Source: Catajapyx aquilonaris
Lineage: Eukaryota
DNA: 20,823 nucleotides
NCBI GenBank assembly: GCA_000934665.2
Contig: JYFJ02001471.1
Span: forward strand, 62,001-82,823
Reading direction: 5' to 3'
Shown here: piece by piece, positions 2,571 through 20,823 of the stretch
Layout of the letters: the number at the start of each line of letters is the position of its first letter
Position numbering within the stretch: the first letter of the stretch is position 1
Program-made: the position numbers and the translations under genes
Notes under the pieces: generated by a model
What the model was told of the DNA's origin: nothing
Database searches by the model: none
What the model saw: the letters and a program-made list of their open reading frames with translations, nothing else

Positions 2571-2849
2571 GGGCTCCTTTATTCAAATGTAAGGCAACTG
2601 CTGCTTGAGCTGTGCATTTTGGAATCATATTTGCTTATACTATACCACAGTATGTAATTACGCTTTCAACCCATACTGGACTTTCTCATGGTTGGAGTTG
2701 CAGGTGTCATAGCTTTGCATTATCATCACCTTGCATTCACCGGAATTTAAACGTCACTCGCGATGTGTAAACGCGGGGCCTTTCCTTCATAACAGTGTTG
2801 TTACTCACCATGACACCTGGTTGACCTCCTGTCCTCTGTGTCTTTTCAG

Positions 2850-3034
2850 ATGCCTGCTTGCGTTGCCAGGCTGAACACAAGGTGGACAGTCGGTCCGGAC
2901 GGCAGGACTGCGTGGTGGTATGGGGAGAGTGCAACCACTCCTTCCATCACTGCTGTATGAGCCTCTGGGTTAAGCAAAACAACCGATGTCCCCTCTGCCA
3001 GCAGGAGTGGTCCGTGCAGCGAATGGGAAAATAG
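2850..3034 (+). CDS. RNF7: RING-box protein 2 (Rbx2/SAG/Roc2), last coding exon; upstream exon(s) not found in the window
   Basis: Polypyrimidine tract and ttttcAG acceptor at 2848-2849 (phase 1). The exon reads (D)ACLRCQAEHKVDSRSGRQDCVVVWGECNHSFHHCCMSLWVKQNNRCPLCQQEWSVQRMGK* with TAG at 3032-3034. This is the RING-H2 C-terminus of Rbx2 as I recall it, including the insect Roc2-type 'GRQDCVVVWGECNHSFHHCCMSLW' stretch. Not in the ORF track because the exon has no early start codon. Confidence 0.95.
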
Positions 3035-6358: not shown

Positions 6359-9300
6359 TTAGGATCTGAAGTACATGAGCACCAGAAGTGCCGTGGCCAA
6401 CAGCAATGCCGATGTTTGAAGACCCATTGCGTTATTGCATTCCATACCTCTGTGGGAAACTAGGAAGGTGGCTTGGGTAGGCAGGCGGCACAGTATTCGA
6501 ACTGTAATAAACATCAGTTAGGTGATCAGCATCGATAAAAATTGTACTACATGGTACTATGGTACTGTACATACAGCATAAGATGTTGCGAATTGCAATT
6601 TTTTTTAACATCTTAGAGCTGAACAGTATACTTACGATTTGACCGCCTAGTGTCTTGGCAGATATTGTCGCCTGCAGTGGTGCTTGCTACTTGCTGCACA
6701 GAGAAGTAGATTGGCTTACATCGAGTCCAGTCGTCACCATCACACAGGTTTCCAAAGGAAAAGTCCAGATTCACATTGCCTGCCTTGGAATCCTTGCAGT
6801 TGTTGGCGTTGCCTTCAAATGCCAAGGGTTTGTCGCGAGAAGTGCACACCTTCAGGCCCGTGCTTTTGCCTGTAAACTGTTACAGAGCAGATATAATTAA
6901 TTTCTGTGCAATGAGGGGTAAAAGTGTGGTTTAATTACTGTAATAGTCATGGAAGTCGTGGTGTAAAAGTTGGTGGGATGGTAACTGTACAGGTTAGCTG
7001 ACATTGGAGAGACGCTGTCGGTGAAAGTGTATGTACTCTCGTCAGGTTTGGTAGTCATGCGGAGAGTATTGCAAACTCTGTAAAACAATCGGCGTGGAAC
7101 TGAAGAAAAAGAACACAGGCTGTATAAGAATTTCGGTTCAACCATTTGTTGTCGAGGTAATGATAACTTACTTTGGGCCATGACTTCCATTGCAATTGTT
7201 CGACCGGCAGGTCCAGGAGGCGAATATTTAGATGGAGACAAGATGTCTCGATTCACATCCATTACAAAGTCATTGTAGTCGGGCCGAGATGTGTAGAACA
7301 AGATTCGCGTTTCTGCAGAGAAGCGCAAAGTGCTGTTCATCGTGCAACATTAATCGGAGTAAGACGTCTTACCAGGGAGATACATTCGGAAATTCCATAT
7401 CATTTGGTTGATTCTGGTTTTATCCGCAGGAGGGTACACATCTCCTGTTGCCATGAAGAGGATGACCTTCGTGTTGGCCCCGTTGTATTTGGTAACTCTT
7501 TGCTCGTCCAGCCTTATCTCGTCGTACAAGAACTGGAGCGTCTCCAGGAAACTCTTTGATGTTGTCTTTTCTAGTTAATGGACAAACAATACGGTACATT
7601 ACGAAAAAACCTCCACTTAAGTAAATTAATATTGCACTTACGGTAGTACAGATCGTTGATCCTCTCTGCGATTTCTGCACCATTGGAGGAATAGTTGAAA
7701 GGCATTATGTAGCTGTTGTTCTGCGTGGATATCACCGACATTTTACTTGTCCACGGCGAAATGTCCAGATTTTGGGCCAGAGATCTTGACATGCAGTGAG
7801 AAGTGAGCATGATCATTTCTCTAAGGGTAAGAGGATTGTGACCAGACTTACGCAAGAAGATTTCTTTGATCGTCGAAAGAATAGGAGCTGAAGTCCATAA
7901 CCGCATATAAGTCGATGTTGGGGGCGTAGACGGGGTCATTGTTGCCAGGCGAATTTACGGCATGTGAGCATTTCTCTTGAGTTGGGATTTGGTACGAAGC
8001 TGTGAATACAATAACAGTTAAACGTTTGTTGCAGACTAAGCAGTGTCGTACTCTCGCATAATTTGCTCTGTTAACCGAAGCCCTTTCCACGGGAATGTCA
8101 AATGTCAGAACTTACTGACGAAGGCTTTCACCGCACTCAGAGAATCCTTGAATAGATTCCGGCTTGCATTTCCGCCGATGATGTTACTGTAGTTGGTGTT
8201 GAGAGGATCCATGAAACTGACTCCCTGAAATAATGAAATATTTATAAGTTGGATGACCGCAATTATAATAGTCTGTGAAATTTGGTCTTACACTATCTAT
8301 CAATGGGTTACTATCAATTTTCTGCAAATTGGCGAATCGATCACATGACCTGATGGTAGGATCACGATTCATTCCTATTTCAGAGTAGTACATGTCCAGG
8401 ACTTGAGACAAAGTAAAAGTTGTTCCTTGATTCCATTCCCGTAACTTCAAACCCAGAAGCAATCCTGAAATGCAAGGAAGGAATTAACGAGAATGGAAAA
8501 ATATCATTCTCCCTGATTATGATACTATACAGGGTGTATCTGAACTCAGTGCCCCGACGTATATGACTGCCTTCCTAGCCACCAGAGGATCGATTTAAGT
8601 ATAGGAATCATTATGTTTGGCCGCCGCATTACGGAGATAATTGGCCGCAAACATGTAGTACAAAATATCCTGTCGGTTAGGCCACCCATCGAACCCGCCC
8701 CCAGTCAGAAGGCTCTGGAAGGTCTGGGGGCCGGACTTCGTTGGTTTGTTGCCCACAGGTGGTAAGGCCTCTTTGGCTAGTTACACCAGAAAATTCTATT
8801 TAAAAGTCAGAAGGAGCGATTAGGCAAAAATCGCTAAAGAGTGTATCTCAGTAATGAGGCTGCCCAGACATATGATTCCTATACTTAAATCGATCCTCTG
8901 GTGGCTAGGAAGGCAGTCATACACGTCGGGGCACTGAGTTCAGATACACCCTGTATATGATTCATTAATTTATTCATATTATATTATACAGGGTGTTTCA
9001 CTGTATAATCCCATCAAGGAGTGGGAAGGAATGCATGTTAGTTGGTCCTTCGGAGAGACCCCTTATTAATACTGTAAATGTGATGGCTTACCGTCAATAG
9101 CCCCCCTGATCCTGGCTGTAGTCATATGGCTATGAATTTGTGTATTCAAGTGGTAATCGCGAGGTATGGCCAACCCGTACGTGTTGGTGGCATTCCACCA
9201 TCCTCTGCTTCCGATGATAGGTCTCAATCCATCATCCAAGCTCTCCTCCAGGATGGCGTATTGAGCCAGTTCACCTGAAACGTGAAAATTATTGCTCTAA

Positions 9301-10821
9301 ATTGGGCCTTTCCATTGTAAAGATGTATCGTAAGTACCTCCTAAAGAAGCCGTGTACAAATTGTCCGCCCCTCTATAGTACCCCTGCATGTTGTTAAAAG
9401 TGGCCAATGCTGCGATGACATTTCCAGCGGCGACTGCTCCCCAAGGAGTGTATACAACTCCTGCTTCCATTGGGCACATACTCAGGTTCGGGTCGGTTGT
9501 CGGACTGGCCCGTATAAGCCTCCTACAGCGCACACGGAGAAGGGTACAGCGTACATCAAAATGATCTTATTTTTTGATGATGAACAGTAATCAACATGTG
9601 GAAGAAAATTCTTACAGTTCCCTCTTCATCCTTTGGTAATTTGGAGGGGTGCAACTCTCGCTGAATCCGCTTCTTGTCAGGTTTACATTGTATGACAGCA
9701 TCCAGTACAGCGAACACTAGAATGTTATAATTATGCTAGGCATATGTTACATGGCTTTTATGACATTGTTGATGATTTTATAAATTACCTCTTCTGCTTG
9801 CGTGAAGATGTTGTTTTGGAAAGATGTGCTGGGTCGAGGGATCATATCTTTGATCATTTGGGACTTCTGGAAATCGTAACCCGTCGGGTGCAGTGGCATC
9901 CTGCCTTTAGCACGGTCTGCTGTTGGATCGTAATACATTCCATCAACACGATACCTGGAGTGATAACAGAGAATGAAGGCAGTGCATGGCAGGAGAGTTG
10001 TGGGACAATATTATCTTTTGTGATTGTGATTTACTTGTGGATTAACATGGCTGCGTTGGTGGCCAAGTCCATGTTCCCTCCGTTGCTGAGCTCGTATTTC
10101 CGAATGAGTCCGATCAGATTCTGCATGGTCATGGGGGATCGGGTGGACGGGTCGAAATTGGTCAGGTTGTAGTAGCACATGTCCAGGAGCCTCTGTGGCC
10201 ATGCTGATAACTTTTCGGACTGACTCACTGCAACTGGTTTCATGTGTGAACATGATTATTTGTGGTGTTTCTTTTGCAGGGGAGGTAAGACTCTACTTTG
10301 TTGATTTCCGACACAATTAATAATGAGTAAGTTTTTGAAATATGCTGGTCGTTGTGGTAGAACATTGTTTTTGATAGAACCTGCATGGCTAGACGTAGGA
10401 ATCAATAGATTTACTTGATTTTGTCAACTCCAGAGTAACTCGGCTAACCCCCCTTAACCGTCTTACATTGTAATGTTTTATGTGGCAACTTCTTCAAATG
10501 TGTGGGTGTAAGGTCTTCCCCTGCGATTTTTAACGGGTATAACATGCCTGATATCTGGGAGTTTGTTTGTAACTCAGTTTATCTATGGCTGTAGACAGGA
10601 GATAGCGATATAGGTACATGAAATAGTTTTAGCGTTGCATTTTATCCACGCTTCTCCATTGTGCATTAGCAGCGAATAAAATTAATAGGAACAACGCAAA
10701 TGCACATTAGTACCAGCTACAAAGTAATCATGTATTACCATGTAAGGTAATCTGTATACATACCCGACGCAACGTTGAACAGGATGTACAGGGAAAGTAC
10801 AAACACGGCCTTTGTCCTCAT
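6359..10821 (-). CDS. Uncharacterised ~780-aa cell-surface protein, paralog A: signal peptide + PGLYRP2-N-terminal-like domain + vWA-like domain + Cys-rich region + predicted GPI signal
   Basis: Manually spliced 15 coding exons, all GT-AG with consistent phases: 10821-10764, 10227-10035, 9954-9789, 9716-9616, 9522-9338, 9274-9092, 8464-8292, 8224-8116, 7999-7852, 7784-7642, 7570-7373, 7312-7172, 7099-6939, 6876-6636, 6501-6359 (2343 nt = 780 aa + stop). N-terminus MRTKAVFVLSLYILFNVASV is signal-peptide-like. C-terminus is MECNNAMGLQTSALLLATALLVLMYFRS*. Splice sites from exon 6 onward are independently confirmed by paralog B. Confidence 0.9.
8530..8953. mobile_element. Tc1/mariner-type MITE (424 bp) in intron 6 of paralog A
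   Basis: Ends are TA-CAGGGTGTATCTGAACTCAGTGCCCCGACG... and ...CGTCGGGGCACTGAGTTCAGATACACCCTG-TA. TIRs are ~110 bp, the outer ~80 bp differing at one position. TA target-site duplication at 8528-8529 and 8954-8955. No transposase ORF. Absent from the homologous intron of paralog B. Confidence 0.93.
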
Positions 10822-12201
10822 CTTTCACCTGAAAATGGGTTTGAACTGATAAAGCACCTTTCTAATCGTCTACCTGCAATATTTCAGTTGAGATTTTTGC
10901 TTCTAACATGTTTTGGGAAAATGAACCCGCTTTTTCAGTTGTGATTGTTGCGAATCAATTGCAATAAAATACAAGAAGCAAGACTAGAAGTGTCTGATTT
11001 TTTCAAAATTTGACTTGGTTCTAAGGCACCATTACTACATCGAAAACTACGCATAAGTCATTTATAATTTGAAAATTTTAATGCCAATTGCATGAAATAG
11101 GAATGACTCGGATTCTATATATTTCGTATAGGCATTTTTCAGTGAAATTTTTCAGGATCATAGCAAAATCAATCTTCAGCAGGCCTAGCCTTGGAATTTT
11201 AGTAATAGGTCTGTGATCACTTTGTGAAACTCTTGTTCGTGAACAAAGGCTAATACAATGAGAGTAAATCTTACTTGAAATTGCAGCTTGAAGGTGTATC
11301 ATGCCACGGCGTCTCCTAATTTTTGGTTCACAATACTCAAGTTCACAAGTTCTAATATGGGTACTTCCACGCTGCAGATATATGGCTGGTCTACACTACG
11401 CCTAGGTGACTGAAAGCCAACGCCAGGTTAATCACTGGAACAGAATTAGAAGCCATCTCATTGGTTGGGGGTACTTGAGGGGCGAAATACCTGTCGGGAA
11501 AGCAGCGATAACAAGAGTGCGTACCGATAACGACACTCATCTCTGAATTCTAGACGAATGATTCATTTTCCGGAAGATTCGTCATACGTGATATGCTCTT
11601 CTTTTTACATGCAAATACGTATCAGTATGCGCTCCGATATATGTTTGAAAATTACTTTTGCTAACCACCATAAGAAATTATGGATATTTCTGACGGGCGA
11701 GGAAATTAGTATCCGGCATTTTTCTCACTTGTTTCTACAAGAAGTTCATGATTTGATTTGACAGTTAACCAGTTAAGCTCATATGTTCGACCAAATTTTT
11801 GTTGGAATGGGCCTCCCTGGCTTGCTTTATCAACATTTTGAAGGTTTCGGTAATCTAATCTCGTCGCGTTTGCTACATTATCTTCTGGATGGGCTTTTGT
11901 CGAGAGTTACTATTTTAATTTTGCCAGCACATTATTACATAAATAGATGTGTTGCCATTTCTTACACTCATACACAGCAAGAGCACTAAGGCATTAATTG
12001 AAATTAGGCACGCCGATAGTGGCAAGAAATTTTAGACCTTGAACAATGCACGTGCATTTTGTGAGGCAATATTATTGTTATCAATAACCGATAACGCTTC
12101 TCACATCTGCCACCAAACGCGCACTATTTTAGAAAATATAAGTGGGAACCATAAGTAATCTAGCAGACAAAAACGAACGTAAATAGAATTATTCACAGCT
12201 G

Positions 12202-12259: not shown

Positions 12260-13256
12260 TCAGGGTGTGACATCGAATTCATCCTCCAGGCCGCAGAAAC
12301 CTGAGGACTTATCCTCATCATCACTCGGAGAAACGTTCCTTTTCCTCTTGCGACACCTAAAAAGGTCTCTAATTATCGGTGCTTCAGCCTGGCCTTCAAT
12401 AAATTCCTGCGTCGTGTATCCAGATCGCACCATAGCCGCGTGGAAGAGCAGAAGAAAAGCCAGAGCGGCCGCTACCAACAGAGATCCAGGGATTGCCAGC
12501 AGGATCAACAGCAACATGAACATCAACCCGGGTGCATAGGTCAGGAATATTGCCACTCGGTAGCTTTCTGAGGAATTGCCGATGACCAGACCGGTCTGGT
12601 CGCCCTTGAGGTACCACGACAGCTCGACCGATGTCAGGACCAGGAAGTAGACGGAGGCCAGAAAGCCTGTGAACACGCACCAGAGGAACACTTTGTAGTT
12701 ACGCTTTCCCACGCAAATGTTGAGGAACACACAGTGGTGGTCAAAGCCTTCGACGCAGTGGTTGCAAGAGCGGCAGTGACGTGTACGAGGACTGGATATC
12801 TCAATCAAGCATATTCTGGAAATGTACAATTACATTGGACAATTTGTAAAATGGTTGTCGAAATACTCGTTACCTGCATTCTCCATTGTGTATGATTGGA
12901 CGTCGTGGTCCTTTGTACAGGCCTAGTGGCTTCTTGTAGATGTCAGAAGGGACGTTAGGATCGGCGGTTTTGATGAAGAAGATGGCGATGTGGAGGACCA
13001 GGTGCAGGGCCAGGATGAGTCCCAGGGGCAGGAGAAGGGGCAGCTGGTAGTATGGTCGCAGAGGAGGGACCAGGATGCCCCAGGTGAAGACGTTGAAGGT
13101 GGCGAGGATGATCCAGGTCGTGACCTGGTAGGTGTTCAGGGGCAGCTGGAGGGCGTGTCTGCGGGGGTAGAGTCTGGGGACGAAGTAGCCGTCCTTGCTT
13201 TGGGTTGACACCACGGAGCACAGGTCATCGCGTGCTAGAGTGCCGGTGCTGCTCAT
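12260..13256 (-). CDS. DHHC palmitoyltransferase, ZDHHC1/ZDHHC11-like (~312 aa, 2 coding exons)
   Basis: Exons 13256-12874 and 12815-12260, joined by a 58-nt GT-AG phase-2 intron (939 nt total). Intact Cys-rich domain [43 protein letters not shown], four hydrophobic segments and a TTxE motif (GYTTQEF). N-terminal RRHALQLPLNTYQVTTW resembles the ZDHHC1/11 'R-x-NG-W-S-x-P-x-H-x-x-Q-x-V-x-W' signature. Start taken as the first in-frame ATG. Confidence 0.9.
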
Positions 13257-13500
13257 TCGAACTGGGGTTGAGGCCACCGCACATCATGTCTACTGCAGAG
13301 GCTCTTATTTGTTTGGCATTGCTAAGATACGCACTACTTGCCCTACATTATTGCACCAATTGCACATTTGCACGGTGTGCTGGGTGTGCTCTGCAGTTGC
13401 ATATATTTTTGAGTATTTCATATGAGAGACAAGACACAGTATACCTAATGAATGCGACAAACTTATGGGCCTGGAAAAAAAGGTCACGAGAGAGGGACAT

Positions 13501-14050: not shown

Positions 14051-14480
14051 CTGCAAGAGAAAGAGACAGAAATAAAGAAGGTACAGGTCAAACACTACCC
14101 ATAGAAAATTTACAACACCGACAGAAAGGGATGGGGTACAAGGTTGGAGTGCAATCAAGACAATGCAAAAAGACAAGAACAGAACAGGTCAAGAATATAT
14201 ACTACCTGTAACAAATCATTAGATATACCATGGTATGGAGACAATACCACTGATGAGACTTGAAAAGTACCTGTATAGTATTTAAAAAGTGAACAAATTA
14301 ATAACAAAAGTTGATGGCAGACCAGGTCCAAGGTATATTCTGTACCTGCAGATTATCTAATAACTATACTTGAAGTAAAATCTGATTCCATTTCAGAGGT
14401 AAGTGATAGTTTGGAAGCTAAATGTGCACATGTGGTGAAGGAAGGTTTATATCATAATTATGATTTAAGCGGATGCATAC

Positions 14481-15550
14481 CCCTCGCTGTCTTCACTATG
14501 ACCTCTCCTGGAATGCTGTATCCAATGAGGTTGTGAGCCCTAAGCTCCACCTTGTAGTGAGTCTCAGGCTTCAGATTGTTCAACTCGTAAGCAACAGTCC
14601 CAGGCTGCAACACTTCTACCTCGATCCACTGCCCCCTTGGCTGCCACACTCCAGAAATGTTCTTCACCTGCAAACCCAAGGGAATTAATATACTTTGGAC
14701 CAATCATCCCAAAAGCAAGGGGGCCAGACACTCACTGGACAGTATCCGATTAAGAACTTGTCAATAGGTTCTCCATTGTCAGGTGGGATAGTCCACCGGA
14801 GGTCATACTTGTCTGGGTATGGGGTGATGACCACCCCAGAAATGGAAGTGTGGTGCAGTATGGTGGGCTGTGCTGGTGAAGACTTCTTCGGCATTGTTCT
14901 AGACTGCTCCAGGTCCCAAGGGCCAAAGCCCACGTCATTTTCTGCCGCAAACCGGAATGTATATGTCCAAGTCGGTTCCAATCCCTCAAGAATGTAGGGG
15001 ACGTCTTCAAAGAAATGCCTCTAGGTTACTACAGTACTATATGCACGCTACTCTATTAGGATAAGGTAACAAAACACATGGACTTGATTTAAAGCTACCA
15101 ATTTATTAAATAATGATAAATACCAACCAAGTATACTGTGTGTATATTCGCATATATTATAACTTATTATAATATATGCGAATATAGAGAGTGGATATAA
15201 TTTCTGACTGAATGAATTAAAAGTTGCTGCTCAAGCCTTCTTTCTCCTTCGTGAAATGTGCGAGTCAACTATCACACCATATCACACTTTGACCGTGACT
15301 TACCCAAAGGCCACACTTTCCTCTTAGCATCTTCCCAGATCGCCCAATCCTCCTTGAACTCAACTCCATAGGCTGTGAGTGGGAGTCCACCAGTGTCATC
15401 AGGTCCAAAGAATTCAAAAGTGATGGTGGTTGGTGTCACCATGTCAAACCTGACTTGCAGCACAGAGCTGGGAGGACGAGTCTCCTTCAGACTCAAGTAG
15501 TACTTGGCCTCTCCAAACTCGTTGGTAGCTATCCACGTGTATAGATATTG
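14481..15550 (-). pseudogene. Fas2: Fasciclin-2 (NCAM family) fragment: end of Ig5 + two FN3 domains; probably a partial, degenerate duplicate
   Basis: Three in-frame exons, ~15550-15304, 15004-14736 and 14667-14481, read YTWIATNEFGEAKYYLSLKETRPP...GPDDTGGLPLTAYGVEFKE...PYILEGLEPTWTYTFRFAAENDVGFGPW...PYPDKYDLRWTIPPDNGEPIDKFLIGYCPVKNISGVW...YKVELRAHNLIGYSIPGEVIVKTARG. This closely matches insect Fas2 as I recall it. Homology is strong; pseudogene status is less sure. It rests on YxC changed to YTW, in-frame stops just upstream of 15550, and no Ig1-4 or TM/GPI exons found before the flanking same-strand genes. Confidence 0.7.
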
Positions 15551-15741
15551 CTTGAAAGGTTAACAATGTCACGTACTGCCCCTCCCTCCGCCTCAGACCT
15601 GTTTCTATTAAAGTGTCATGTACTGTACGTACCTTGTAAAATGAATGAAAGGAAGATCACTGGTAAAAGCATAATGTATGTTGCCTGCACCTGCGATACC
15701 AGTAAAAGAAGCACAAGATTACCGTTTTTATGATAGTGCAT

Positions 15742-17650: not shown

Positions 17651-20600
17651 CTAGTTGCGATCAAATTTGGCACGAACATGAAGGTGCATGTCTATGTCTA
17701 TGTCGACGTCAATGTCGATGTAGTCCCCGGTCGTCGGTTCTGTTCCAGGAGTGGTTTTTGTTAGCCCTGTTGTTCCTGTTGACCACGTCTGCGTAATAGT
17801 AGTCCAGTTGCTAATGCCACATTCCATGCCTTTGTGGGTCACGACGAATGTGGCCTGTGTCGGAAATCGGCACTTGATTCGAACTGAAATCAGAGATATT
17901 AAATAATATCCACTAGATTAATATACCGTGACCAGAACATACAGTTTTTAACATTCAGACAAATTCAGGCAGTTCGGATCACAATCATGAAATCAGGACC
18001 AGCATCATACTCTATACGGTATAGTCTGTATACTTACGATCTGGGTGTTTGGTGTCTTGGCAGATATTGTCTCCTGTTGCGGTGTTGCTTGCTACTTGCT
18101 GCACAGAGAAGTAGATTGGCTTGCATCGAGTCCAGTCGTCACCGTCACACAGGTTTACAAAGGAAAAGTCCAGGTTCACATTGGCTTCCAGGGATTCCTT
18201 GCATTTGTTGGGGTTGCCTTCAAATGCCAAGGGTTTGACACGAGAAGTGCACACCTTCAGGCCAGTGCTTTTGCCTGTGAACTATTGGGAAGCAGATACA
18301 ATTAATTTCTGTGCAATGAGGGGCAAAAGTGTGGTTTAATTACTGTAATCGTCATGGAATCCGAGGTGTAAAAATTGATGGGATGGTAACGGTACAGGTT
18401 CGCCGACATTGGAGAGACGCTGTCGGCGAAAGTGTATGTACTCTCGTTATATTTGGTGTCACATTGTCTGTAAAACAACCGGCGTGGAACTGGAAAAAAA
18501 AATAACTGAGACTTTACACGAGTCCGGGTTATTTCATTTGTTGTCGAGGTATTGATGCACTTACTTTGGGCCATGACTTCCATTGCAATTGTTCGACCGG
18601 CAGGTCCTGGAGGCGAATATTTAGAAGGAGACAAGATGTCTCGATTCACATCCATTACAAAGTCATTGTAGTCGGGCCGAGATGTGTAGAACAAGATTCG
18701 CGTTTCTGCAGAGAAGCGCAAAGTGCTGTTCATCGTGCAATATTAATCGGAGTAAGACGTCTTACCAGGGAGATACATTCGGAAATTCCATATCATTCGG
18801 TTGATCCTGGTTTTATCCGCAGGAGGGTACACATCTCCTGTTGCCATGAAGAGGATGACCTTCGTGTTGGCCCCGTTGTATTTGGTAACTCTTTGCTCGT
18901 CCAGCCTTATCTCGTCGTACAAGAACTGCAGCGTATCCAGGAAACTCTTTGATGTTGTCTTTTCTAGTTAATGGACAAACAATACGGTACATTACGGAAA
19001 AACCTCGACTTAAAAATTGATCTTGCACTTACGGTAGTACAGATCATAGATCCTTTCTGCAATTTCGGCACCATTGGAGGAGTAGTTAAAAGGCATTATG
19101 TAGCTGTTGTTCTGTGTGGATATCACCGACATTTTACTTGTCCACGGCGATATGTCTAGGTTTTGAGCCAGGGATCTGTTCATGTAATGAGAGCACAGTG
19201 TCATCATTTCTCTCAAAGAACAAAGATTATGGCCAGACTTACGCAAGAAGATTTCTTTGATCGTCGAAAGAATAGGCGCTGAAATCCATGACCGCATATA
19301 AGTCGATGTTGGGGGCGTAGACGGGGTCATTGTTGCCAGGAGAATTTACGTCATGTGTGCATTTCTCTTGAGTTGGGATTTGGTACGCAGCTGTGAACAC
19401 AATAATGGTTAGAGCTTTCGTTGCAGACCAATTCGCACTCTAGCATAATATATTATTTTACTCGGGAATTGTGCAATCGAGTCAAACTTGCCGAAGTCGA
19501 TGTTTTGTTCGAACAATTACGGTCTCCTTGAAATAATTTTGCTCCAATAAATTACGCGTGTGAAATTATGAAATCTTAAATTATTAAGTTTATTTTAATC
19601 TTGATATCATGCATTTTTCGACTCAAATGACTTTACTTATTAGTTCTTAATTTTAGTGATTGACATCTAACAATCATGACAGTCGGCAACCGTAACAAAT
19701 AGAAATACTTTACCTGCGGAGGTGTTAGGAATCAGCGGGGCATAAACCGAAGCTCTACCACGGGAAAGTAAATATCAAACTTACTGACGAAGGCTTTCAT
19801 CGCTCTCAGAGAATCCTTGAATAGATTCCGGCTTGCATTTCCGTCGATGATGTTACTGTAGTTGGTGTTGAGAGGATCCATGAAACTGACTCCCTGAAAT
19901 AATAAAATATTTATAAGTTGGATGACCGCAATTATAATAGTCTGTGAAATTTGGTCTTACACTATCTATCAATGGGTTAGTAACAATTTTCTGCAAATTG
20001 GTGAAACGATCACATGACCTGATGGTAGGATCACGATTCATTCCTATTTCAGAATAGTACATGTCCAGGACTTGAGACAAAGTAAAAGTTGTTCCTTGAT
20101 TCCATTCCCGTAACTTCAACCCCAGAAGCAATCCTGAAATGCAAGGAAGGAATTAACGAGTACTGAAATTATTATTCCTCTGACGTCTCTGAGTGATTAT
20201 GAATGATTTTTAAATACGATTCATTTATTAAATCTAATAATAATAATTCATACCCCGTTATCAGCCATCGGCTCTTTAGGGGGGAAGTTTGTTTTGGCTG
20301 GAACTCTTTGCTTTCATTTTACTGTGCTCATTGGGATAGGATAGGGACGGAAGGAAGCGGCTGTGGCCTATTAATTACGGAAGCAACTCCGGAATTTCCC
20401 TGGAAGGACCTTGGGAAACCACAGAAAACCACGGTCAGAGTTGCCGGTCCCGGGATTCGAACCCAGGACCTCCCGATTAGCAGTCGGACGCCTTATCCAC
20501 TATGCCAACCTGCTTCGGTCATTTATTAAATATTAGTATTAGACCTACATTAATACTTGGAATGTGACATCTTACCATCAATCGCCCCCCTGATCCTGGC

Positions 20601-20823
20601 TAGACTCAAATGGCTATACACTTGTGTGTTCAAATGGTAATCTCGAGGTATGGCCAACCCGTATGCGTTGGTTGCATTCCACCATCCTCTGCTTCCGATT
20701 AGAGGTATCAATCCACGAACCAAGGCCTCCTCCAGGATGGCGTATTCAGCCAGTTCACCTGAAACGTGAAAATTATTGTTCTAAATTGGGCCTTTCCATT
20801 GTAAATATGTATCGTAAGCACCT
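17651..20823 (-). CDS. Paralog B of the 6359-10821 gene (5'-partial, runs off the window), with a non-GPI C-terminus
   Basis: Exons >20823-20822, 20758-20576, 20133-19961, 19893-19785, 19390-19243, 19175-19033, 18963-18766, 18705-18565, 18489-18344, 18281-18038, 17883-17651. All GT-AG with the same phases as paralog A. Internal length differences are only multiples of 3 (-15 nt, +3 nt) and I saw no stops. Last exon reads LRIKCRFPTQATFVVTHKGMECGISNWTTITQTWSTGTTGLTKTTPGTEPTTGDYIDIDVDIDIDMHLHVRAKFDRN*. Confidence 0.9.
20234..20518 (-). mobile_element. tRNA-derived SINE (~285 bp), full length, in an intron of paralog B
   Basis: On -: Pol III A box TGGCATAGTGG, B box GGTTCGAATCC, central GGTTTTCTGTGGTTTCCC...AGGCCACAGCCGCTTCCTTCC segment and a (TTA)n-type tail. 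The central segment resembles my recollection of insect SINEs such as Talua. Perfect 13-bp target-site duplication TCATTTATTAAAT at 20221-20233 and 20519-20531. Absent from paralog A. Confidence 0.92.

Follow-up and report, generated by a model that had tools for sequence, protein, structure and literature searches.

The closest described relatives of the gene reported here are found in the Met-TelC family, which was described by Burroughs, Nicastro and Aravind (eLife 2025; PMC12419801). In those sections of the paper and its supplement on which we draw throughout, the Met-TelC clade is of bacterial origin and was acquired before the divergence of cnidarians; its arthropod members are fused to vWA and Ig domains and to a membrane helix, and its chordate version is PGLYRP2, in which the domain is fused to an amidase. 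The same sections predict that most Met-TelC domains are inactive and may serve as receptors for polyisoprenoid-pyrophosphate-linked bacterial intermediates. TelC itself is described as a type VII-secreted lipid II phosphatase toxin, and the network file links Prok-TelC to Met-TelC with an HHalign probability of 77 (E = 5.5e-4). Our literature search found no other paper that treats the relationship between Met-TelC and PGLYRP2. Here we describe a gene, copy A, in a 20,823-nucleotide stretch of the Catajapyx aquilonaris genome (assembly GCA_000934665.2, contig JYFJ02001471.1, positions 62,001 to 82,823 of the forward strand); this whole stretch is called the window below, and all coordinates refer to it. 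At a probability of roughly 0.88, the product of copy A is a secreted, membrane-anchored arthropod Met-TelC-vWA-Ig protein, both in identity and in architecture. As a member of this arthropod family copy A is new; it is divergent, and it has been duplicated.

The coding region of copy A (stop codon included) lies at 6359..10821 on the minus strand and consists of 15 coding exons, which together encode a product of 782 amino acids (aa). Coding exons 1-5 are at 10821-10764, 10233-10035, 9954-9789, 9716-9616 and 9522-9338, exons 6-10 at 9274-9092, 8464-8292, 8224-8116, 7999-7852 and 7784-7642, and exons 11-15 at 7570-7373, 7312-7172, 7099-6939, 6876-6636 and 6501-6359. These exons were deduced from open frames, from tblastn of relatives and from the reading of splice sites, and the introns are GT-AG throughout. 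Exons 5-8, which a preliminary description of the window had placed at 8116..9522, have exactly these limits on the minus strand, with AG/GT boundaries at all four, and they code for residues 175-392. All the peptide strings that were quoted from them are present in this part of the spliced translation, and the protein length of 780 aa given there became 782 aa after splicing. Among the 14 coding introns, 13 are present as joints in spliced contigs of the public run X1 (joint positions are quoted after the tool's stated cut shifts), including those around exons 5-8 (9522/9616, 9274/9338, 8464/9092, 8224/8292 and 7999/8116), and the remaining one, 7570/7642, is represented by loose ends only.

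At the 5′ end, a 683-letter contig of run X1 that covers 10032-10233 continues upstream of 10233 for another 166 letters. By depth, about 63 letters of this contig would fall in bin 10656-10849 and about 103 in bin 11238-11431. Contig depth thus makes probable both a start-codon exon, with its ATG at 10821, and a 5′ untranslated exon on the minus strand somewhere within bin 11238..11431, the exact ends of which are beyond bin resolution. Coding exon 1, whose end is in phase 1, is joined to the acceptor that the contig uses, at 10233. It encodes the predicted signal peptide (residues 1-19; 10765..10821, minus strand), an ATG followed by a hydrophobic stretch that is among the two most hydrophobic 15-residue segments of the protein. 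Two other exon choices were rejected. A hydrophobic open reading frame (ORF) at 10706-10632 has no ATG and is in the wrong phase for a signal-peptide exon, and depth favours 10821-10764; an alternative acceptor for exon 10 at 7821 would leave an intron of just 31 nucleotides, and the contig joint is 7784/7852. An open frame, canonical splice sites and spliced contigs led us to reject a pseudogene. Copy A is an intact, transcribed gene.

The relatives of the copy A protein are arthropod proteins. A query made of exons 5-6, read through an in-frame 63-nucleotide intron with X at the stop, gave 51 matches at E<=1e-3 among 1.84 billion representatives. Four of them (P0004, P0018, P0031 and P0052, two of which were checked against Pfam) were discounted as repeat proteins matching in many stretches, which leaves about 47 arthropod proteins, headed by P0005 (E = 7.5e-10), P0008 (1.5e-8) and P0010 (1.5e-7). 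The non-repeat relatives align over query residues 10-144, the full-length ones being 765-916 aa long, and ten nearer relatives that were looked up are wasp, mayfly, thrips, planthopper, beetle and barnacle proteins. Even the best relatives are just 35-40% identical to copy A in exons 5-6, and there is therefore no close relative in the libraries searched. With tblastn, four relatives are colinear with the minus strand from 10234 to 6655 (E from 1e-16 to 1e-18). The spliced copy A protein matches a profile of 25 relatives over positions 20-834 of 837 (409.9 bits) and is identical to the family at 70 of the 91 well-conserved columns. The same profile found 298 proteins, and the 120 best of these, which were listed, are all from insects, so uncharacterised insect homologs do exist, as had been anticipated. 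Their names in the list are ‘uncharacterized protein’, ‘VWFA domain-containing protein’ and, in some cases, ‘N-acetylmuramoyl-L-alanine amidase’. Shorter queries gave less: a word-indexed search of exon 6 against longer proteins returned 39 candidates, none of them significant, phmmer of exons 5-6 against PDB returned 0 matches at E<=10, and an Atlas search with exon 5 alone returned no usable match.

Because the copy A protein is matched by the profile from end to end, there is no space in it for Amidase_2. Pfam searches of 12 single-exon ORFs at E<=1 found neither Amidase_2 nor VWA nor anything else relevant, and those of 27 relatives at E<=0.01 found no domain at all, Amidase_2 and VWA included. 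The copy A protein has no Amidase_2/PGRP domain, in agreement with what had first been read from the exons. By exact look-up, P0010 is KAF5294475.1 of Abscondita terminalis, P0086 is the AGAP011476-like KFB47520.1 of Anopheles sinensis, and the P0056 cluster holds XP_039432471.1; all three accessions are rows of Met-TelC.tsv in the supplement of PMC12419801. The Abscondita and Anopheles proteins have the same Met-TelC-vWA-Ig architecture as copy A and are colinear with it over their full length; copy A shares their hallmark Asp and Arg and their hydrophobic tail at the C-terminus, and it keeps the conserved cysteines as well. Copy A differs from them by Tyr, Gln and Arg in place of a near-invariant His, Glu and Glu, and by the tandem duplication of its gene, one copy of which apparently has no tail.

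The Met-TelC (Lipocone) domain, with its C-terminal helical extension, is assigned to 8116..10233 on the minus strand (coding exons 2-8, about residues 20-392). It had been placed in exons 5-8, and these exons do belong to it, whereas the folded unit is larger and begins at about 10233. On P0010 the supplement of PMC12419801 starts Met-TelC at residue 68, and in the models of relatives one compact unit extends from about residue 25 to 395. Given the P0010 domain limits, the profile alignment and these models, the folded module is predicted to be exons 2-8, of which exons 5-8 (9522-8116) are the last two thirds. The fold was tested on the barnacle protein P0021 (403 aa), which covers just the domain and gave a model with a predicted local distance difference test (pLDDT) score of 81.6 and a predicted template modelling (pTM) score of 0.83. 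When this model was compared by an exhaustive aligner with 48,161 PDB chains, TelC of Streptococcus intermedius (PDB 5UKH, chain 5ukh_A) came first (Z 6.4, root-mean-square deviation 5.8 Å, 189 residues aligned), and the runner-up had Z 2.8. The P0021 model thus points to a TelC-like fold, a four-helix cone with a cap, and the Met-TelC domain is a distant relative of that bacterial lipid II phosphatase toxin. As a separate observation, the barnacle gene of P0021 appears to be split into two adjacent models: P0021 contains the Met-TelC domain only, P0202 has a neighbouring gene number, and P0202 is fully identical to P0021 over 40% of P0021.

A family feature given in PMC12419801 is an Asp six residues after the canonical active-site position of the last core helix (H4), paired with an Arg of the C-terminal helical extension. 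In copy A the H4 motif (9092..9142, minus strand) contains Asp290-Gly291, with Arg284 six residues upstream. The Asp290 column is Asp in 44 of 44 relatives and the Arg333 column, in the extension, is Arg in 39 of 39, and copy A possesses both hallmark residues of Met-TelC. The Asp is common to TelC and copy A. The position six residues before it, which is the canonical last-helix active-site position by the rule of the same paper, is Glu in 41 of 44 relatives, and it is Arg284 in copy A and also Arg in the paralogue, copy B; the acidic residue that characterises the prokaryotic TelC lipid II phosphatases at this position is therefore missing from both. Furthermore, a near-invariant His (36 of 37 relatives) is replaced by Tyr144, and a G-D-L-A-E helix with Asp in 42 and Glu in 40 of 45 relatives has Glu236 and Gln239 in copy A. 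We placed the His and the D/E helix at canonical positions by the order of the helices. Since the canonical Glu has become Arg and two other near-invariant polar residues have changed, the Met-TelC pocket of copy A is probably no longer catalytic. Typical arthropod members, judged by the same columns, would seem to keep more polar residues than the word ‘inactive’ suggests. Copy A differs from TelC also in being an animal surface protein rather than a bacterial toxin, and profile search finds no sequence similarity between the two.

Homology between this module and the N-terminal region of vertebrate PGLYRP2 had been proposed, and two lines of evidence uphold it. First, Met-TelC.tsv, which holds the three arthropod accessions above, also holds mammalian, frog and fish rows of the PGLYRP2 N-terminal region. 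Second, residues 43-400 of the P0010 model, searched in the Atlas, match a chordate cluster whose members all (100%) have Amidase_2, with a template modelling (TM) score of 0.54 over 244 residues. The aligned part of that cluster lies outside any Pfam family, and the cluster ranks third after two arthropod clusters, the next unrelated row having a TM score of 0.34. An Atlas feature search with P0010 residues 30-400, aimed at named clusters, yielded nothing usable. The order of motifs is also common to the two proteins: E-x-GVV, L-x-G-(D/E)-L, G-x-W and an x-x-DG helix. Conservation extends to the part of the module upstream of exon 5, and the helix matching the arthropod motif L-I-x-L-I-R-K-x-E starts the vertebrate rows as well. 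The preliminary description had listed six PGLYRP2 motifs, five of which are found in the vertebrate rows; the sixth (YY...RDP...RS) would fall past the end of the domain as supplied there and is not seen in these rows. The evidence thus supports a single module shared by copy A, as its Met-TelC domain, and by vertebrate PGLYRP2, as its N-terminal region. Both proteins are secreted. Copy A is not an orthologue of PGLYRP2: it has vWA, Ig-like and anchor modules where PGLYRP2 has Amidase_2/PGRP, and it is without the long low-complexity insert of the mammalian rows. The homology and the arthropod architecture were already published in 2025 and are not new here.

The names given to these proteins deserve a comment. 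Seven members without an amidase domain (P0079, P0087, P0096, P0105, P0126, P0019 and P0179) are called ‘N-acetylmuramoyl-L-alanine amidase’ in public databases, and the midgut proteome table of one paper (PMC5941458) gives a mosquito orthologue ‘amidase activity’. The amidase naming of amidase-less members is a misannotation propagated from PGLYRP2. Its existence means that annotation pipelines already detect similarity to PGLYRP2 at the level of BLAST.

Downstream of Met-TelC, a vWA-fold module without a canonical metal ion-dependent adhesion site (MIDAS) is predicted at 7172..7999 on the minus strand (coding exons 9-12, about residues 392-602), colinear with positions 475-640 of the family profile. 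A vWA-like module had been expected here, and its evidence is Foldseek on the P0010 model rather than Pfam. In the full-length P0010 model (pLDDT 83.5), the integrin alpha-1 I domain matches with E = 2e-5 and a TM score of 0.66 over 207 columns. Integrin I domains and ANTXR2 match the module after the domain with TM scores of 0.66-0.70, and most of those listed among 90 PDB matches at E<=1e-3 are vWA domains. The profile of 25 relatives matches integrin I domains in PDB weakly (E = 0.17). On the P0010 model, a vWA (Rossmann-like) fold therefore follows Met-TelC. The MIDAS motif is DxSxS. Residues 419-423 of copy A, where it is expected, read D-F-S-S-Y and depart from it, and the family consensus at this position is D-T-x-W.

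The vWA module is followed by a putative cysteine-bearing, Ig-like beta-sandwich (6419..7099, minus strand; exons 13-15, about residues 602-763). Residues 650-776 of the P0010 model are all-beta, the model aligns with ANTXR2, which combines vWA and Ig-like modules, over 332-336 columns, and four cysteine columns conserved in the family are kept in copy A. The protein ends with a hydrophobic tail (6362..6418, minus strand), which makes up the last 15-19 residues, ends 2 residues before the stop and includes the most hydrophobic 15-residue segment of the protein, at residue 766. A hydrophobic segment of this length lies within 6 residues of the C-terminus in 26 of the 29 full-length relatives, often after small residues. 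Because the hydrophobic end is so close to the C-terminus and follows small residues, the tail is most likely a glycosylphosphatidylinositol (GPI)-anchor signal rather than a transmembrane helix with a cytoplasmic tail. This differs from the sections consulted of PMC12419801, which describe a transmembrane helix in arthropod members. Copy A thus has the arthropod architecture throughout, being secreted and having Met-TelC, vWA and Ig modules and a hydrophobic helix. It resembles ANTXR2/CMG2-type receptors and integrin I domains in the sequence of a vWA fold, a beta-sandwich and a membrane anchor, and it differs from them by the lack of DxSxS, of a Pfam VWA match and of a cytoplasmic tail, and by the presence of Met-TelC before vWA.

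A tandem paralogue, copy B, is found at 17651..20823 on the minus strand. Exons 6-15 are within the window and the remaining 5′ exons lie beyond its end. Copies A and B share 88-96% nucleotide identity in blocks and 466 of 539 aligned residues (86%), and GT-AG boundaries are kept in copy B. The ratio of nonsynonymous to synonymous substitution rates (dN/dS) between the copies is 0.33 overall, 0.51 in exons 6-8 and 0.23 in exons 9-14. As read from genomic sequence alone, the last exon of copy B encodes a Thr-rich and acidic tail with no hydrophobic end, and copy B might be a soluble form.

Several results weigh against the identity and architecture proposed for copy A. The library type of run X1 is unrecorded, and its RNA origin is deduced from the spliced contigs. 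Structural tests were run on relatives, which are 33-40% identical to the copy A protein. The TelC match has a Z below 8 at 5.8 Å, ‘middling’ by the tool's own scale; Foldseek found no match in PDB for the P0021 domain model (best E = 3.5), and the profile of 25 relatives found neither TelC nor any other chain for the N-terminal domain at E<=10. The vWA module is without a Pfam VWA match, both in the exon ORFs and in the relatives. A profile of six short members, searched against proteins of 149-706 aa, gave 8 arthropod matches, none with Amidase_2, a null that says nothing on homology as the word prefilter probably never offered PGLYRP2. The homology with PGLYRP2 follows from the shared published family listing and from the structural match of a relative, not from a direct alignment. 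Finally, the only experimental trace found for the family is the mosquito orthologue in the midgut proteome table.

How such a protein may work can be proposed from its order of parts: signal peptide, Met-TelC, a MIDAS-less vWA fold, a cysteine-bearing Ig-like beta-sandwich and a hydrophobic tail. The tail would direct GPI anchoring, and Met-TelC would act as a binding module that has lost catalysis. Its ligand, after the proposal in PMC12419801, could be polyprenyl-pyrophosphate-linked bacterial envelope intermediates or a related lipid-linked glycan, and the vWA and Ig parts may hold Met-TelC at the cell surface or bind partners. The idea of an amidase-free receptor, raised in the preliminary description, is in line with that published proposal and was already in print there. 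An immune pattern-receptor function of copy A is a tentative proposal that falls somewhat short of even odds.

A role in cell adhesion or in the matrix, developmental or structural, with Met-TelC as a scaffold or as a binder of an endogenous ligand and with no part in immunity, is also quite conceivable, if clearly below even odds. vWA and Ig-like domains are classic adhesion modules, and the family is spread over many insect orders among the 120 matches listed. The dN/dS values of the paralogues, 0.51 in exons 6-8 included, indicate purifying selection, which is unlike an arms race. On the other hand, the only homologous module of known context sits in PGLYRP2, an antibacterial amidase, and the fold relative TelC is an antibacterial toxin. 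Moreover, the vWA fold of copy A is without the MIDAS that adhesion vWA domains use, and both the tandem duplication and the altered pocket residues are consistent with diversification specific to the lineage.

It is very unlikely that the Met-TelC domain of copy A is still an enzyme, that is, a secreted or anchored phosphoesterase cleaving the polyprenyl-pyrophosphate head groups of lipid II-like molecules as TelC does. The near-invariant His, Asp and Glu and the Glu at position -6 lie on helices in the relatives, and typical members could therefore be active. These positions are occupied by Tyr144, Glu236/Gln239 and Arg284 in copy A, and copy B shares the Arg; most Met-TelC proteins are predicted to be inactive in the sections consulted of PMC12419801, and the placement of the His and of the D/E helix comes from helix order, not from superposition. 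One could also imagine that typical members are active surface enzymes, with His/Glu/Glu, on bacterial lipid-linked precursors, and that this lineage has evolved a binding-only tandem pair, one GPI-anchored and one soluble, as sensor and decoy or opsonin; we regard this as unlikely. It is extremely improbable that the domains are unrelated and resemble PGLYRP2 only through short motifs shared by chance: the region has no Pfam model and the link is of the indirect kind stated above, yet both belong to one family in an independent analysis already published (PMC12419801, supplement), the chordate PGRP cluster is third in the structure search with a TM score well above that of the next row, and annotation pipelines give the PGLYRP2 name to proteins of this family.

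Other features of the window include a putative miniature inverted-repeat transposable element (MITE)-like element in intron 6 of copy A, at 8526..8957 with no strand assigned, whose 114-nucleotide arms (8526-8639 and 8844-8957) are 91% complementary. Run X1 covers it about 10 times as deeply as the flanking exons, and it is therefore multi-copy. Between copies A and B, on the minus strand, are a DHHC palmitoyltransferase gene at 12260-13283 (Pfam DHHC, E = 3.7e-28) and exons of fibronectin type III repeats at 14458-15559 (Pfam fn3, E = 2.8e-6, with a weak match to DSCAM-type Fn3). An exon for a RING-H2 finger of the RBX1/ANAPC11 type is found on the plus strand at 2825-3034 (zf-rbx1, E = 1.8e-16; zf-ANAPC11, E = 8.7e-9). 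A small gap in the assembly probably accounts for five N at about 2520-2560 of the window, which read as XX in the listed open frames.

Amidase-free arthropod versions in genetically tractable species allow the large and poorly understood N-terminal part of PGLYRP2 to be studied separately. This point was already printed in 2025 in the published account of the family, and the conceptual gain from the locus is small. The locus also illustrates a database error, the amidase name on amidase-less members of the family. What it adds is a verified, transcribed gene model from a lineage without a close relative in the databases, together with a tandem pair of paralogues and natural variants at the putative pocket residues; its new points are the tandem paralogue, the substituted pocket residues and the GPI-like tail.

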